A model generated the notes under the pieces. It had not been told where the DNA came from, made no database searches, and worked only from the letters and a program-made list of their open reading frames with translations. From the IMG/VR virus record IMGVR_UViG_3300050343_000110: 64,000 nucleotides of DNA, one strand, 5' to 3'. The position numbers and the translations under genes are program-made. This document shows, piece by piece, positions 4,904 through 40,588 of this stretch (position 1 is the first letter of the stretch; the number at the start of each line of letters is the position of its first letter). The DNA comes from a virus.

Positions 4904-6149
4904 TGATAAATTTTAGTTCATTTCTTACAGAGGACAAGGGTGGAAAGAACCTACACCTAGAACATATTGAGGATGAAATCCTTAACTATGGTATTTCTGG
5001 TGGACGGGCTTCAATTAACTTTGTTCGCTCTCTACGAGATATGCTTGCTGGTGCATCACGTTCATCAATAGACATGACTGTAAAGTGGGATGGAGCTCCT
5101 GCAATATTTGCTGGTATTGACCCTGCCGATGGTAAGTTTTTTGTTGCAAAGAAATCAGTATTCAATATAGAACCAAAACTCTATAAGTCAAATGCAGAGA
5201 TTGATGCAGATGGATTATCTGGTGCATTGAATAGCAAATTCAAAGTTGCACTTGCAGAGTTTTCTAAGTTGGGTATTACAGATGTTCTTCAAGGTGACTT
5301 GATGTTTACTGATGATGTATCTACAGAAACTATTGATGGTAAGAGTTTTCTTACATTCCAACCCAACACTATTGTATACGCAGTAGATGTAAATTCGGAT
5401 TTGGGTAAGAAAATTGAAAATGCAAAGATTGGTGTCGTATGGCACACAACATACAAGGGTGCAGAACTACAGGATATGAAAGCATCATTCGGTGCAAACA
5501 TTAGTGGACTGCAATCTCCATCAACAGTATGGATGGATGATGCGACATACAAAGATGTATCTGGTAAAGCCACAATGACTGAAAAGGAAACATCTGCTGT
5601 GACAGCATCTTTATCATCTGCTGGTACAACATTCAGAAAGATTAATTCCACCCTGTTAACATCCTTTATGAATATACAAAATACATTCACTGGAAACTTA
5701 TCTGGAGCCTCTCTCAAGACTTACAATAATAGTAAGGTAAGAAAGGGGGAGACTATTAAGAATCCATCTGCTCATGCAAAGGGGTACTTAAAATGGGTAG
5801 AAGATGCATTTCAAAAGAATATAGACAAACTCAAGACCCCCTGCTCGTAAACAGGACTTGGAAAAAAAGAAAAAAGAAACTGTTCGTGAACTTGCAAAAC
5901 ACACGAAGAATTTGACTAGTATTATTGAGTTTCAGAACCACATTGTAGATGCAAAGATGGGGGGTCGTAAAGAAACTAAATACTGTTAAGAGCATTGGAA
6001 CTTTCATCAAAACCGCCAATGGGTTCAAAGTTGTAAACCCAGAAGGATATGTTGCAATTGATAGAGTTACAGGTGGTGCAGTTAAACTGGTGGATAGAAT
6101 GGAATTTAGTTTCAATAACTTTACTGCAATAAAGGCATGGGATAAATGA
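4903..6149 (+). CDS. DUF6267-like protein with a ligase/nucleotidyltransferase KxDG motif (frameshifted near 5840 and 5960)
   Basis: NLHLEHIED, TVKWDGAPA, QGDLMF, PEGYVA, VKLVDRMEFS; joins ORFs 4879..5850 and 5949..6149. Confidence 0.75.
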
Positions 6150-27281: not shown

Positions 27282-27359
27282 CTGTCCGTAGCTCAGCTGG
27301 ATCAGAGCAACAGCCTTCTAAGCTGTGGGTCGCAGGTTCGAGTCCTGCCGGACAGGCCA
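27282..27359 (+). tRNA. tRNA-Arg (UCU)
   Basis: Acceptor CTGTCCG/CGGACAG, anticodon arm ACAGC-CTTCTAA-GCTGT, GGTTCGAGT, encoded CCA. Confidence 0.95.
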
Positions 27360-34905: not shown

Positions 34906-35214
34906 ATGCCGACATATAGATTTAAAAATGATGAGACAGGTGAGGAGTTTGATGATTTTATCAGCAACTCTCGTAGAGAAGAACTCTTAAAAAAGAATCC
35001 TCATATATCTCAACTACCAACACCATTTGGAATTGTTTCAACAACAGGTTCAATTGATAGTAAAACTGACGGTGGTTGGAAAGAGGTTCTTAATAAAGTT
35101 ACAGATGCCCACCCAGATAGTCCACTTGCAGATAGGTATGCAAAAAAGTCTATTAAGGATGTTAAGACTAAACAGGTGGTAGACAAACATCGACATAAGT
35201 GGAGAAGCAATTAA
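34906..35214 (+). CDS. FmdB-like small regulator without Cys ligands
   Basis: MPTY.F....TGE.F; position before phoH. Confidence 0.55.
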   Translation: MPTYRFKNDETGEEFDDFISNSRREELLKKNPHISQLPTPFGIVSTTGSIDSKTDGGWKEVLNKVTDAHPDSPLADRYAKKSIKDVKTKQVVDKHRHKWRSN

Positions 35215-35915
35215 TGGCAAAAGCAAAAGACATTCGTATTGATGATATGGTAACAGTTAGTTCTGTTACTGATAATCAAAAACGTGCCTTTCAAGAATAT
35301 AAGAACGATAAGAATCTTTTCTTGTACGGTGCGGCTGGTACAGGTAAAACATTTATTACGTTATATCTTGCATTGCAAGAAGTGTTGAGAAACGAAACAA
35401 AGTTTGATTGTGTTTATATTGTTCGTAGTGCAGTTCCAACTCGTGAGATTGGGTTCTTGCCAGGCGATGAAGAAGATAAGACAGCGTTGTTCCAAGTTCC
35501 TTACCAGAATATGGTAAAGTTCATGTTTGAACAACCGAATGAACAGGCCTTCAGTATGTTGTATGACAGACTAAAGAATCAAGGTTCGTTAATGTTCTTG
35601 ACAACTTCCTTCTTGCGTGGTATAACATTAGATAATGCAATCATCATTGTGGATGAGGCACAGAACTTGACGTTCCATGAACTGGATACAATCATTACTC
35701 GTGTGGGTATGGATTCAAAAATTATGTTCTGTGGTGATTTCTTTCAAAGTGATTTGCAGAAGAATATTGATAAGGCCGGAATGCAACACTTTATGAAAAT
35801 TCTAAGAGGTATGGACTCTTTTGCAAATATCGAATTTACACTTGGTGATATTGTTCGTTCTGGTATGGTTAAAGAATACCTTATCAGTAAGATTAAAACA
35901 GAAGGTGATGAATAA
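35214..35915 (+). CDS. phoH: PhoH-like ATPase
   Basis: GAAGTGKT, IGFLPG, SFLRG.T, DEAQN, GD..QSD. Confidence 0.95.
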   Translation: MAKAKDIRIDDMVTVSSVTDNQKRAFQEYKNDKNLFLYGAAGTGKTFITLYLALQEVLRNETKFDCVYIVRSAVPTREIGFLPGDEEDKTALFQVPYQNMVKFMFEQPNEQAFSMLYDRLKNQGSLMFLTTSFLRGITLDNAIIIVDEAQNLTFHELDTIITRVGMDSKIMFCGDFFQSDLQKNIDKAGMQHFMKILRGMDSFANIEFTLGDIVRSGMVKEYLISKIKTEGDE

Positions 35916-36423: not shown

Positions 36424-37137
36424 ATGTTTAATCATGTACCAGTAGATATCCCAGAGGTATCAACTAAAACTATCAAGCGTAAGCGTTTCTATGATACGCC
36501 TACAGGGTTCTATCCCTCTATTACAACCGTATTAGGTGTTCGTAAAGAGAAACAACAAGGACTTGCAAAGTGGCGTGAACGTGTAGGTAACGATGTTGCC
36601 AATCACATCATGCGAACTGCCGCAGGCCGTGGAACTGCTGTTCACCATATGTGTGAAGATTTCCTTAACAACAAAGAGGTTATTCAAGAAGAACAGAAGT
36701 TCTTGCCTTGGTGTTTGTTCTCTCAACTAAAACCCACTCTGACAAAAAGTATAAATAATATTTTCGCACAAGAATGTGGACTATGGAGTGAGAAGTATAG
36801 ACTCGCTGGTAGAGTCGATTGCATTGCTGAATGGAACGGTGTTCCTTCTATTATTGACTTTAAGACTTCACGTTCTGAAAGAAAAGATGACTATAATTTT
36901 GAATATTATATGCAGGCATCAGCCTATGCAGAAATGTTTGAAGAACGAACAGGAATTGAAATCAATCAGATTGTAATTCTTGTTGTAACAGAAGATGGAC
37001 TAGTTCAAGAGTTTGTTAAAGAGAAGCACGAATATCTGCAACCTCTTATTGAAACCATTGATATGTTCACTGAACAATGGGAAAAAGAAAATGAAGAGTT
37101 GGAAGAAGGCCCTGACGTTATCGGCGCTCCTGTTTAG
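36424..37137 (+). CDS. PD-(D/E)xK exonuclease (Cas4/lambda-exo-like)
   Basis: YPSITTVL, RGT.VH, AGRVDC, IIDFKTS, Q..AYA. Confidence 0.88.
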   Translation: MFNHVPVDIPEVSTKTIKRKRFYDTPTGFYPSITTVLGVRKEKQQGLAKWRERVGNDVANHIMRTAAGRGTAVHHMCEDFLNNKEVIQEEQKFLPWCLFSQLKPTLTKSINNIFAQECGLWSEKYRLAGRVDCIAEWNGVPSIIDFKTSRSERKDDYNFEYYMQASAYAEMFEERTGIEINQIVILVVTEDGLVQEFVKEKHEYLQPLIETIDMFTEQWEKENEELEEGPDVIGAPV

Positions 37138-37495
37138 TGGGAGTGCTTTGGCTGCGCCAGAGGACTATAATACACCAGAACCAGAAACACCACCTCAAGT
37201 GTTTCGTTCAGACAAACCAGTAACTTGTACTACTGATTCATATGATGAAGTAAAGCAAAACTTTCTAGAATCACATGGTGAAGTTGGTTTTATGAGATAC
37301 ATAAGTGATAGTAAAACTGCTATTGAAATAATTGGTAATGTAGACACAGGAACTATTACTATCTTAGAATTTATACCATCAAATAAATATACTTGTTTTA
37401 TTTCTGTTGGTAGAGGATTAGAGGTAAACAGTAATATTTTTGATAAGGCAAAACAAGGTATTGAAACTAACTTACTTAAATCTATTGACTTGTAA
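37091..37495 (+). CDS. Exported hypothetical protein
   Basis: Signal peptide; KPV.C ... TC....G. Confidence 0.6.
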   Translation: MKSWKKALTLSALLFSGSALAAPEDYNTPEPETPPQVFRSDKPVTCTTDSYDEVKQNFLESHGEVGFMRYISDSKTAIEIIGNVDTGTITILEFIPSNKYTCFISVGRGLEVNSNIFDKAKQGIETNLLKSIDL

Positions 37496-37515
37496 ACACC
37501 ACTATGGTATAAATA
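37485..37515 (+). promoter_or_regulatory. Overlapping sigma70 and T4 late promoters for tmRNA
   Basis: TTGACT-17-TATAAA with TATAAATA at 37508. Confidence 0.7.
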
Positions 37516-37519
37516 TAGT

Positions 37520-37877
37520 ACAGTTTGTTGATACAATCTGAAAGCTAGACAGGACTTGGGGGCAGTACCCAACGCCTCCACCATAATTACTTGAGGACAA
37601 TATGTTTGATAGACTAACAGAGTTTTTTATAAAACTGTTTAAGATACAAGAAAAGACACCAGTAAGATATCTATCTGGTGTTGGTAAATCAAGTAATTAT
37701 GATGGGGGCGAACTAGGATCGACTGATGGTAATAGGAAAGAGTAGAGCTGTGGGATGGATGCCTAATAATCCAAAAAAACTAAACGCAAACGATAACTTT
37801 GCACCTCAAGATTTTGCTCTAGCAGCATAATCGGATAGGGTTTCGGTAGGTTTCCTAGTAACAGAATAACCTACCAC
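37520..37877 (+). ncRNA. ssrA: Circularly permuted two-piece tmRNA (alphaproteobacterial type)
   Basis: Acceptor piece with T-arm TTGGG-GGCAGTA-CCCAA and CGCCTCCACCA (ends 37583); coding piece GGGGGCG..GGATCGAC from 37704 with G3-U70; tag ANDNFAPQDFALAA* at 37786..37830. Confidence 0.93.
37602..37745 (+). CDS. 47-aa ORF starting inside the tmRNA intervening segment
   Basis: GAGGA RBS; MFDRLTEFFIKLFKIQEKTPVRYLSGVGKSSNYDGGELGSTDGNRKE. Confidence 0.45.
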   Translation: MFDRLTEFFIKLFKIQEKTPVRYLSGVGKSSNYDGGELGSTDGNRKE

Positions 37878-37894: not shown

Positions 37895-38662
37895 ATGATG
37901 AAAGAATTTATATTTGTAATTACAATGTGGGGAATCGATGGTTCTGGTACAGAGAATTATATAGGACAGATTGCAATGCAACAGCCGTTCTCAGAAACAC
38001 AGTGCGAAAGACTTATGGATGATGGTATGTGGAAATCTGATTACGAGAACGAACATTACTTTATGAAGGGCCATTGCTTCCCGGCAGAATGTTCTGGTAA
38101 AGAGCAATGTACAGAGTAACAGGATATTTTAAGGAACAGAAGGTAGTTCAGTATTTTACTGATGTATATGACGCTATTGATTTCAAAGATGTTGTTGATG
38201 CACACTACCCTTTAAAGGTAACATTTGAAAAAGGAGTTTATCCAGTGAGAAGTTTTATTGTAGATAGTTGGAATGGTGTAATGAATATGGATAGAAATCC
38301 ATTGAGACATATTCCAGATTTGAATGTGAGACACATGGTACTACAAGTGCTTGCATGGATGTGGTGTATTGTGTTTAGTATGTGGATTGGTAGTTTTTGG
38401 ATTATGGGTATCAGTATGATTGCTCATGCACTATTACTCGCCGCAATAGTTATTACAGTCGCAACCTTTGAAACTGCAAAACGAGCCCCACAGTATTTTG
38501 GTGGTTACGGCAGAGGCGCTGGTGGTGAGCATGAATAAGATTAAACAGTTTTGGTATGAGACTGATAGCATTGAAATGGTTCTCTTTGCAACTATATGGA
38601 GTCTGTTTGGTTACGGTGCATATGTAGTAATACTTGAACTAGTAGATAGGGTGATGCCTTAA
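37895..38662 (+). other. Small exported/membrane hypothetical genes
   Basis: ORFs 37895..38119, 38107..38538, ~38531..38662. Confidence 0.55.
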
Positions 38663-38785: not shown

Positions 38786-39025
38786 ATGAATCTAGAAGAA
38801 TTAGCAGTGATGACACCCAAGAAGTTTGCAATCAAGATTGAAGAGATTGTAAAAGAAGGACTTGGACAAACTACATATATGGATGCTATTTTGGACTATT
38901 GTGAAAGACATTCAATGGAGCCAGATACAGTTGCTCCACTTATCTCAAAACCCCTCAAGGAAAAAATAGAGGCAGATGCAAGAGAACTAAACTTCCTTCC
39001 AAGAGTCGCAACACTACCAATCTAA
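38786..39025 (+). CDS. 33: Late transcription coactivator gp33
   Basis: F...IE, Y.DAI..YC, ISKPLKEKI..A..LNFL. Confidence 0.88.
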   Translation: MNLEELAVMTPKKFAIKIEEIVKEGLGQTTYMDAILDYCERHSMEPDTVAPLISKPLKEKIEADARELNFLPRVATLPI

Positions 39026-39034
39026 GGAGTTGTT

Positions 39035-39616
39035 ATGGAAGCATGGGAAGCCTATCAGATGTATCTTGGTCTAAAATTGCATTTCACAACAGATTATGAT
39101 TACACTAGGTATGGGGGTAAAACCTCAGCCACTAAGGCATCTTTCCTCAAAAGAAAGGATAGATACTTTTTCGCCAGAGTTGCAAAAAAGTATGATGATA
39201 AAACCTTAGAGTATTATGTCTCAAATTTTATTAAATCACCAAAGGGGTGGTTAGGAGATTTCAAAGAAGAAAACTATCTGGATTGGTCTAAGAACAAACA
39301 ATCATTGACATATAACTTTCTTACAGATATGTCACTTTTATTTTCGATTGTAGACGATTTTAATTCAATTTTCTCTTGCCAAAACGGCCAACATCCAGTA
39401 TTATTAAAGAACTTCCTCGCCAAGAGGATATCAGTTGAAACGATGGTAATCCTACAGGGGTTACTGAATTATGTCAGAAAATGGGATAAGGAATTAGAAG
39501 ATGATTTAGTATGGCCTGATAGTAGACGTTTAATCGTCAAGTATGGTGCATTTCTTGATTACGATAAAGAGAAATGTAAAACGAAACTTCTTAAACTGAC
39601 TAAGGAGACTTTCTGA
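39035..39616 (+). CDS. 59: Helicase loader gp59
   Basis: YL.LKLHF...YDY..Y.GK, F.KRKD.YFF, HP, IS.ET. Confidence 0.88.
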   Translation: MEAWEAYQMYLGLKLHFTTDYDYTRYGGKTSATKASFLKRKDRYFFARVAKKYDDKTLEYYVSNFIKSPKGWLGDFKEENYLDWSKNKQSLTYNFLTDMSLLFSIVDDFNSIFSCQNGQHPVLLKNFLAKRISVETMVILQGLLNYVRKWDKELEDDLVWPDSRRLIVKYGAFLDYDKEKCKTKLLKLTKETF

Positions 39617-39868
39617 TGACACAGGAAGAACTAGTAAGGGAAAGAGATTTTTACAGAGCAAAACTCAAAGAAGAGAAGTCTCTTGTAAAAGCACTAAGGT
39701 TTGAGTGTGCAGAACTGCAAAAGCGTGATGCCGAAGTAACCAAAAGATTGTCGGAAACGGCAAATCGCCCAGTGATGAGGCCCCGTAACAAGCGTCCTCA
39801 CTAAATAACATTTCCTGAGTATGAATCAAAACTGCTCATTGACATTTAACAGGAAGGTGAAGATTGGT

Positions 39869-40588
39869 ATGAAGAATAAGGAAAACTATATGCTTACAAC
39901 TGCTAAACTGGTATCGTATTCGATGCCAACTGAAGCCTTTGAACAGGAAGGGTTAAAGAACGTACAGGACTTAATCTCTTACTGTGCTCGTGTATCAAAT
40001 CCGGCAAACCAATTTAATAATAAAACCTCGACTAAACTTATACAATACTTGATAAAACACAAACACTGGTCGCCGTTGGAAATGGCGAGTGCTTGTTTGG
40101 AAATTGAAACAACTCGTGATATTGCACATCAACTAGTGCGTCATAGAAGTTTCAGTTTTCAAGAATTTAGTCAGCGATATGCTGACCCACAAACAATGGG
40201 GGATGCATTTACCTTGCGTGAATGCAGACTCCAAGACCCTGAGAATAGACAGAACTCTATTGAGATAGAGAATGATCCATCTTTACAATTAGACTTGCAC
40301 AGACAAGAGTTGATTACAGAATGGCAACGTAGACAGCATGGTATTATTAATCAGTCTAAAGAATTGTACAACTGGGCAATAGAACACGGTATTGCAAAAG
40401 AACAGGCTCGTGCAGTCTTACCAGAAGGGTTGACTAAAACTCGTGTGATGATGAATGGCACGTTGCGTTCATGGGTTCACTATATAGAATTAAGGGGTGC
40501 GAATGGAACTCAAAAGGAGCATATGGAAATCGCACAGGCAGCCGCAAAAGAGATTGCCCAAATTTTCCCACTCATGGAGAAACTATAA
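39869..40588 (+). CDS. thyX: Flavin-dependent thymidylate synthase
   Basis: HWSPLE, RHRSFSFQEFSQRY, KEQARAVLP, TQKEH. Confidence 0.95.
   Translation: MKNKENYMLTTAKLVSYSMPTEAFEQEGLKNVQDLISYCARVSNPANQFNNKTSTKLIQYLIKHKHWSPLEMASACLEIETTRDIAHQLVRHRSFSFQEFSQRYADPQTMGDAFTLRECRLQDPENRQNSIEIENDPSLQLDLHRQELITEWQRRQHGIINQSKELYNWAIEHGIAKEQARAVLPEGLTKTRVMMNGTLRSWVHYIELRGANGTQKEHMEIAQAAAKEIAQIFPLMEKL

Follow-up and report, generated by a model that had tools for sequence, protein, structure and literature searches.

Organization of the tmRNA locus

The window, i.e., the whole 64,000-nt stretch of DNA that was analyzed (IMG/VR record IMGVR_UViG_3300050343_000110), derives from a T4-like marine phage with a G+C content of 38%. 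Positions 37481-37875 of its plus strand represent a permuted two-piece tmRNA gene, with a score of 103.5 bits for the Rfam family RF01849 (gathering score 50) and a match of 101.8 bits to the Rfam covariance model RF04321 (gathering score 47) at positions 37521-37830. These scores confirm the permuted phage tmRNA that a first-pass annotation had read from the letters of the sequence. ARAGORN, when run on the window, did not call the tmRNA gene, which is called by Rfam. Elsewhere in the window, a tRNA-Arg(TCT) gene was found by both ARAGORN and Rfam (27282-27359, plus strand); copies of tRNA-Arg(TCT) are present in phage Melnitz, too (PMC9004378). The features of the tmRNA locus and the neighboring genes are listed in Table 1.

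Table 1. Position of the tmRNA gene, its promoters, the spacer ORF and neighboring genes in the window.
Feature	Position	Strand	Basis
PhoH-like protein (neighboring gene)	35199-35915		
PD-(D/E)XK (PDDEXK) nuclease (neighboring gene)	36424-37137		
Overlapping promoters: sigma-70-like TTGACT (37485-37490), 17-nt spacer, TATAAA; T4-type late motif TATAAATA (37508-37515)	37485-37515	+	Sequence reading
tmRNA acceptor piece (T-arm, 3' acceptor strand, encoded CCA at 37581-37583)	37521-37583	+	RF04321 and RF01849 alignments
Closing stem, 5' arm, its top overlapping the ribosome-binding site	37582-37594	+	Complement of 37689-37701
Intervening segment (spacer), 120 nt	37584-37703	+	Sequence and Rfam
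Shine-Dalgarno motif GAGGA, 4 nt 5' of the ATG	37593-37597	+	Sequence
Spacer ORF, 47 codons (ATG at 37602, stop at 37743-37745)	37602-37745	+	ORF list
Conserved ORF core, codons 1-26 (N-terminal helix and invariant Tyr-Leu)	37602-37679	+	Family alignments
Closing stem, 3' arm	37689-37701	+	Sequence
tmRNA coding piece, 5' acceptor strand from G37704	37704-37875	+	Rfam alignments and sequence
ORF tail read from mature tmRNA sequence, 42 nt into the coding piece	37704-37745	+	Sequence
Tag reading frame, 14 codons, ending Ala-Leu-Ala-Ala, then TAA stop	37786-37830	+	Sequence and Rfam
3' terminal hairpin of the coding piece	around 37848-37876	+	Rfam alignments and sequence
Late-transcription coactivator gp33 (neighboring gene)	38786-39025		
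Helicase loader gp59 (neighboring gene)	39035-39616		
ThyX (neighboring gene)	39821-40588		

The tRNA-like domain is split in the manner of permuted tmRNAs, with the T-arm, the 3' acceptor strand and the CCA located upstream of the spacer and the 5' acceptor strand located downstream of it. A G3-U pair is present in the acceptor stem, as judged from both the sequence and the fold, and the tag has the hydrophobic, Ala-rich tail, followed by a stop codon, of a permuted tmRNA tag. As read from its sequence, this locus most likely represents a two-piece tmRNA gene that is functional and belongs to a T4-type marine phage resembling Melnitz. Removal of the spacer is required to free the CCA end of the acceptor piece as well as the 5' terminus of the coding piece.

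The 120-nt segment, the 13-bp stem that closes it, the GAGGA, the ATG and the 47-codon ORF that runs into the coding piece were all found exactly as first annotated. Complementarity of the two arms (37582-37594 with 37689-37701) is perfect over the 13 bp, and the closing stem, stacked on the 7-bp acceptor stem, yields a continuous helix of approximately 21 bp. The precursor (37573-37710) has a predicted folding energy of -46.2 kcal/mol (z = -7.5; none of 200 shuffled sequences was as stable), with the 5' arm of the closing stem paired in both the minimum-energy and the centroid folds. The arms co-vary among relatives, with 47 distinct arm sequences, and the closing stem is the sole helix conserved in the subfamily to which the window belongs; hairpins in the interior of the window's spacer lack such conservation. 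A TAA in the 3' arm, out of frame in the window, terminates the homologous ORF of other subfamilies.

The overlapping early and late promoters that had also been proposed for this locus were supported by comparison with 39 related loci; the late motif was found at the same place in 36 of these loci, and TTGACN precedes it by 16-18 nt in 28 of them. An identical early/late arrangement is found in Melnitz and in one further locus (L190). Because its -10 hexamer ends in A, the promoter pair is absent from a simple promoter scan and was read by eye. The tmRNA promoter sits in the last codons of the ORF located directly upstream (37085-37495, plus strand), which has a signal-peptide-like start and no Pfam match. 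The next ORF in the window starts at 37895, after the tmRNA.

Conservation of the spacer ORF

A set of 127 distinct phage spacers was assembled from three IMG/VR pattern scans, two on tmRNA sequence and one on the 3' end of the parent gene described below, and from look-ups of protein matches; one locus (L198), a chance pattern match in an unrelated GC-rich phage, was removed. Homologues of the window ORF were found in 41 of the 127 spacers, a count that does not represent a prevalence, as the second database scan was aimed at the family of the window peptide. The start codon of the homologues is always located 16-20 nt past the CCA (n = 41) and is ATG in 38 of the 41, while 34 of the 41 carry a Shine-Dalgarno motif of at least 4 nt located 3-7 nt 5' of the start. 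Only about 1% of shuffled sequences would contain, by chance, an ATG ORF preceded by a Shine-Dalgarno motif that fills at least 60% of such a spacer. The homologous ORFs range from 26 to 62 codons in length, with all insertions and deletions representing whole codons, and no internal stop was found in the core of any of the 41 homologues. The Tyr-Leu pair is invariant (Y23 and L24 in the 49 sequences of alignments A1 and A2), even though five different codons encode the invariant Leu.

Changes in the spacer-ORF alignments show three-base periodicity. For the core, which extends from the start codon to the Tyr-Leu motif, an in-frame pN/pS of 0.315 (binomial p = 1.2e-11) was obtained from nine roughly independent pairs, as compared to 0.66 and 1.26 in the +1 and +2 frames of the same alignment. 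Family-wide, the all-against-all pN/pS of 0.73 is saturated, and subfamilies and independent pairs were therefore used. Codon models fitted with IQ-TREE to three subfamilies gave omega values of 0.26 for the shortest type, 0.12 for the window's subfamily and 0.13 for the third, with log-likelihood gains over omega = 1 of 7, 19 and 22 units, respectively; these gains are approximate, as kappa was fixed at 1.6 times its estimate in the omega = 1 fit. Given the frame-specific pN/pS, the low omega, the conserved start codon and Shine-Dalgarno motif, and the closing stem as the sole conserved helix, the open frame is, as judged from these alignments, maintained by selection on the protein rather than by RNA structure or chance. 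The first-pass annotation had claimed that the intervening segment encodes a protein and had named conservation of the ribosome-binding site and ORF, together with dN/dS, as a way to check this claim; the outcome of this check was clearly positive.

A natural truncation that leaves only the core was observed in one Melnitz-type ORF (L163 2147-2254, plus strand), where a spacer length of 185 nt instead of 186 nt causes a frameshift, such that the ORF stops one codon past its Tyr-Leu-Ser-Gly motif.

A parent family of small phage proteins

Searches of Pfam, PHROGs and the ESM Atlas yielded no match for the window peptide or for its parent family, which was exposed by a profile search of 5.8 billion proteins that returned 81 small marine ORFs. 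Members of this family of uncharacterized small phage proteins are 39-47 residues long and combine an N-terminal amphipathic helix and a Tyr-Leu with a highly conserved C-terminal module of approximately 20 residues, which contains two His and one Cys and ends in KYEDLCK; the pN/pS for this module was 0.12. A tblastn search with one family member found no match among isolated phages.

The window peptide shares with this family the N-terminal helix and, at a fixed distance from it, the invariant Tyr-Leu. In place of the C-terminal module, which is missing, the window peptide has a tail encoded by the stem arm and the tmRNA. AlphaFold2 predicted one helix for residues 3-16 and disorder for the remainder of the peptide (mean pLDDT 61). 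By sequence, the window peptide is a truncated derivative of the parent family rather than a full member, and, since the most conserved module of the family is missing, the activity of the window copy may differ from or fall below that of the full-length members. A second copy of the parent gene was not found in the window. Loss of the C-terminal module occurred several times independently, i.e., in the window type, in a type of 26-27 residues, in the Melnitz type, in P0047, and, through the frameshift, in L163; P0047 represents an intermediate form between the full-length parent and the truncated peptide.

The parent gene was found in several arrangements relative to tmRNA genes. It is located inside the spacers of more divergent tmRNAs (L190, L202), immediately 5' of a tmRNA whose spacer is short and empty (L194, L195, L204), one gene downstream of a tmRNA (L208), or, as a free-standing gene, in densely packed arrays of small genes that have no tmRNA within 1.5 kb (L206, L210). 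In L194, the parent gene (5135-5261) is followed by a tmRNA (5279-5471) with a spacer of only about 33 nt; in this type of arrangement, the late promoter TATAAATA lies between the peptide gene and the tmRNA, and an early-type promoter precedes the peptide gene. This repeated linkage could reflect function or, equally, a variable region between the nuclease and gp33 genes that the parent gene and the tmRNA share.

The spacer as a slot for small genes

In the first, unbiased scan, 16 of the 31 phage spacers with a length of at least 100 nt were found to hold an ORF with a Shine-Dalgarno motif and an ATG that covers at least 60% of the spacer, as compared to 0.37 expected from shuffled sequences; for all scans combined, such an ORF was present in 43 of 69 spacers versus 0.7 expected. 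Phage spacers ranged from 29 to 264 nt. Among 98 alphaproteobacterial tmRNA genes, the median spacer length was 34 nt, only one spacer reached 100 nt, and none contained a spacer-filling ORF with a Shine-Dalgarno motif and an ATG.

The slot ORFs of other phages are not related to each other, and all of them start just past the 5' arm. One of these families (family B) encodes a 34-residue membrane peptide and has a pN/pS of 0.30 in frame versus 0.75 and 1.47 out of frame; other slot ORFs encode membrane proteins of 39, 68 and 76 residues as well as cysteine-rich peptides. The ORF in one spacer (L115 13549-13692, minus strand) matches phrog_16066 (E = 6.9e-10), and another (L037 6570-6773, plus strand) is DUF2061-like over the full length of the Pfam profile, although this match (E = 1.2e-3) does not reach the cut-off. 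Two cysteine-rich ORFs (L083 1254-1394, minus strand; L122 5041-5286, plus strand) encode possible zinc-binding mini-proteins, and the latter extends 105 nt into the coding piece. In L208, the tmRNA (756-1062) holds an ORF for an unrelated membrane peptide in its spacer and a full-length parent gene (1337-1480) lies approximately 230 nt downstream of the tmRNA, which makes spacer content exchangeable among near-identical tmRNAs.

The upper end of the 5' arm of the closing stem provides a ribosome-binding site, and the 3' arm of the stem, together with the first few bases of the coding piece, provides stop codons in two of the three reading frames; in the third frame, which is used by the window ORF, the stop is located 42 nt further. 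As far as can be judged from these sequences, the spacer in marine T4-like phages behaves as a general slot for small genes.

Proposed expression of the spacer ORF and alternative explanations

The locus probably combines a functional tmRNA with a genuine nested small-protein gene that was captured and then truncated, that uses the spacer as an opportunistic slot and is translated before the tmRNA matures, and whose peptide acts in trans. An ancestor of the window phage's tmRNA would have captured the parent gene in its spacer, and the window copy would later have lost the C-terminal module; it now crosses the 3' arm in a frame that lacks a stop until 42 nt into the coding piece. The early/late promoter pair would produce one transcript, on which the ribosome-binding site is transcribed approximately 95 nt ahead of its pairing partner, which would allow ribosomes to load co-transcriptionally and to translate the spacer and the 5' acceptor strand up to the stop codon. 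Once the ribosomes have passed, the acceptor-plus-closing helix of approximately 21 bp would form and half-bury the ribosome-binding site; RNase P would cut at 37703/37704 and the 3' trailer would be trimmed to the CCA, yielding the two tmRNA pieces and destroying the message. These two processing steps follow general knowledge of tmRNA maturation, as also summarized in the tmRNA database paper. Translation of the spacer ORF, its timing relative to processing, and what becomes of the spacer are inferred along these lines. The spacer would serve as a slot that is tolerated and strongly transcribed and that comes with its own ribosome-binding site and stop codons, and the peptide itself would not need the tmRNA; its action in trans is a default assumption rather than a finding, since the peptide matches no family. 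As translation and the tRNA-like fold are mutually exclusive on one molecule, the earlier suggestion that the precursor is either translated or matured appears reasonable for one molecule at a single moment.

The first-pass annotation had pointed out that cleavage at 37703/37704 would leave a non-stop message, and the sequence agrees that this cut would part the ORF from its stop codon. It had further suggested a feedback loop. In such a loop, fast cleavage by RNase P would give rise to stalled ribosomes and to a peptide that is tagged and destroyed by active tmRNA, and the peptide could build up only under low trans-translation capacity. In the window and 22 of its 41 relatives, the ORF indeed reaches the RNase P site without a stop, the parent gene recurs in linkage with tmRNA genes (inside them, upstream or downstream), and ArfA and BrfA provide a precedent for non-stop mRNAs under tmRNA control. 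Such a loop nevertheless appears unlikely, since in 19 of the 41 relatives the ORF stops inside the spacer and the full-length parent genes also occur free-standing, with ordinary stop codons and no tmRNA nearby. The non-stop state consequently holds for the window and these 22 relatives but not as a general design and is, judging from this sequence comparison, a lineage-specific by-product of the ORF's frame across the 3' arm. This frame looks accidental, as all three frames over the 3' arm stop within 45 nt; in addition, the read-through tail is dictated by tmRNA sequence, and no similarity to ArfA or any rescue factor was found in Pfam, even at E-values up to 10.

The location of the parent gene beside or inside the tmRNA in at least three arrangements could instead mean that it is functionally tied to the tmRNA. 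It is rather unlikely that the peptide takes part in trans-translation, where it would modulate tmRNA-SmpB of the host or the phage, or ribosome rescue, with its dosage set by a race between translation, maturation and tagging. If this were true, the tmRNA gene of the phage would itself contain a circuit that follows an ArfA-like logic, and the linkage of the parent gene inside, upstream and downstream of tmRNAs would reflect function and not a shared neighborhood.

Translation of the spacer might also matter only in cis, with ribosomes that translate it, or that stall at the Tyr-Leu-Ser/Gly-Gly before the 3' arm, keeping the helices open and setting the rate of maturation, and with no function of the peptide in trans. 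Translation of the ORF must indeed melt the 3' arm, along with the 5' acceptor strand in the case of the window; the top of the stem includes part of the ribosome-binding site, and the core is most conserved in its C-terminal residues, 9 nt ahead of the 3' arm. However, the motif is equally conserved in free-standing copies without a tmRNA and so is not tied to a regulated downstream structure as in ribosome-arrest or leader peptides, selection covers the entire N-terminal helix and not just the end of the core, and the same slot holds unrelated ORFs in other phages, which together make regulation in cis a slim prospect. Repeated independent loss of the C-terminal module might suggest that the ORF is a decaying relic, i.e., a truncated and no longer useful remnant of the parent gene, which persists only because a spacer tolerates anything. 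Such a relic should have an omega near 1 and scattered stops and start losses; it is improbable given the omega values of the truncated subfamilies (0.12 for the window type and 0.26 for the shortest type), the retention of the start codon and Shine-Dalgarno motif in almost all 41 variants, and the absence of core-internal stops in all members. That the open frame is not coding and merely a by-product of conserved spacer RNA sequence or structure is highly improbable, as, even though the spacer folds well and pairing is possible between the Pro and Gly codons on either side of the motif, the alignments show three-base periodicity and a frame-specific excess of synonymous change, interior hairpins are unconserved, insertions and deletions keep ORFs of 26 to 62 codons in phase, and homologues occur as ordinary genes.

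The spacer of permuted tmRNAs has been treated as disposable, and here it holds a gene under clear purifying selection. For a small-protein gene nested in this way, one transcript must serve as both a messenger and the precursor of a stable RNA, and, since a given molecule can be message or folded stable RNA but not both at once, expression has to follow a temporal order. For marine T4-like phages, the spacer represents a slot in which the closing stem supplies a ready-made ribosome-binding site and stop codons. As for the evolution of small genes, the parent family documents how a free-standing gene was captured, was repeatedly truncated, and came to read through into a structural RNA. Spacer ORFs are also easily skipped in annotation, since they are located inside an RNA gene, as in the record of Melnitz, which, with its host, the OM43 strain H5P1 (Methylophilales), offers a culturable system.

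Comparison with known systems

The closest isolate is Melnitz, a Methylophilales phage of the Kyanoviridae, which carries its tmRNA at the same position, between the PDDEXK nuclease and gp33/gp59/ThyX, with approximately 70% identity to the window over the tmRNA; gene order and the early/late promoter pair are shared as well. Its spacer also carries a homologous ORF, although the spacer is 142 nt and the ORF 54 codons long, as compared to 120 nt and 47 codons in the window. The Melnitz record has no CDS annotated inside the tmRNA feature. In Melnitz, a glutamine riboswitch (RF01739, 52.8 bits) directly follows the tmRNA (L001 3402-3450), whereas none was found in the window at the gathering threshold; this riboswitch is therefore not a constant partner of window-type tmRNAs. 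A two-piece tmRNA with a downstream glutamine riboswitch has been described for Melnitz and related pelagimyophage-like genomes (PMC9004378), and the tmRNA and ssrA passages of that paper make no mention of a spacer ORF.

Bacterial permuted tmRNAs (RF01849, RF04321) share with the window the order of acceptor piece, spacer and coding piece, the encoded CCA, the G3-U pair and the Ala-Leu-Ala-Ala end of the tag. Unlike the window, they have short spacers (median 34 nt in the 98 alphaproteobacterial genes) with no ORF that fills the loop. The tmRNA database paper (2025, PMC11915505) describes spacers that contain a tRNA-Ala gene or a repeat element as well as homing-endonuclease genes in group I introns of tmRNAs; its passages on these insertions make no mention of a protein gene in a spacer, and the phrase "open reading" is absent from its text. 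Full-text literature searches for protein genes in tmRNA spacers, the coverage of which excludes older key papers, found no paper that describes one.

ArfA and BrfA are ribosome-rescue factors that are produced from non-stop mRNAs and held in check by tmRNA. Like these, the window ORF is small, its message would lose the stop codon through RNA processing at a hairpin, and its product would be exposed to tagging by tmRNA. The window peptide does not belong with these factors, as it has no sequence similarity to them (Pfam, E-values up to 10), and synthesis from a non-stop message is not conserved, with 19 of the 41 spacer ORFs and all free-standing homologues having their own stop.

Dual-function RNAs such as SgrS/SgrT and RNAIII/hld, and mRNAs that are released by RNase P cleavage of flanking tRNAs, represent a further parallel. 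As in these RNAs and in tRNA-punctuated transcripts, one transcript of the window would provide a stable RNA and, probably, a translated small ORF, with tRNA-processing enzymes setting the ends. The window differs from the dual-function RNAs in that the ORF is located between the two halves of a single tRNA-like domain, and the folded stable RNA and the translated message would therefore exclude each other.
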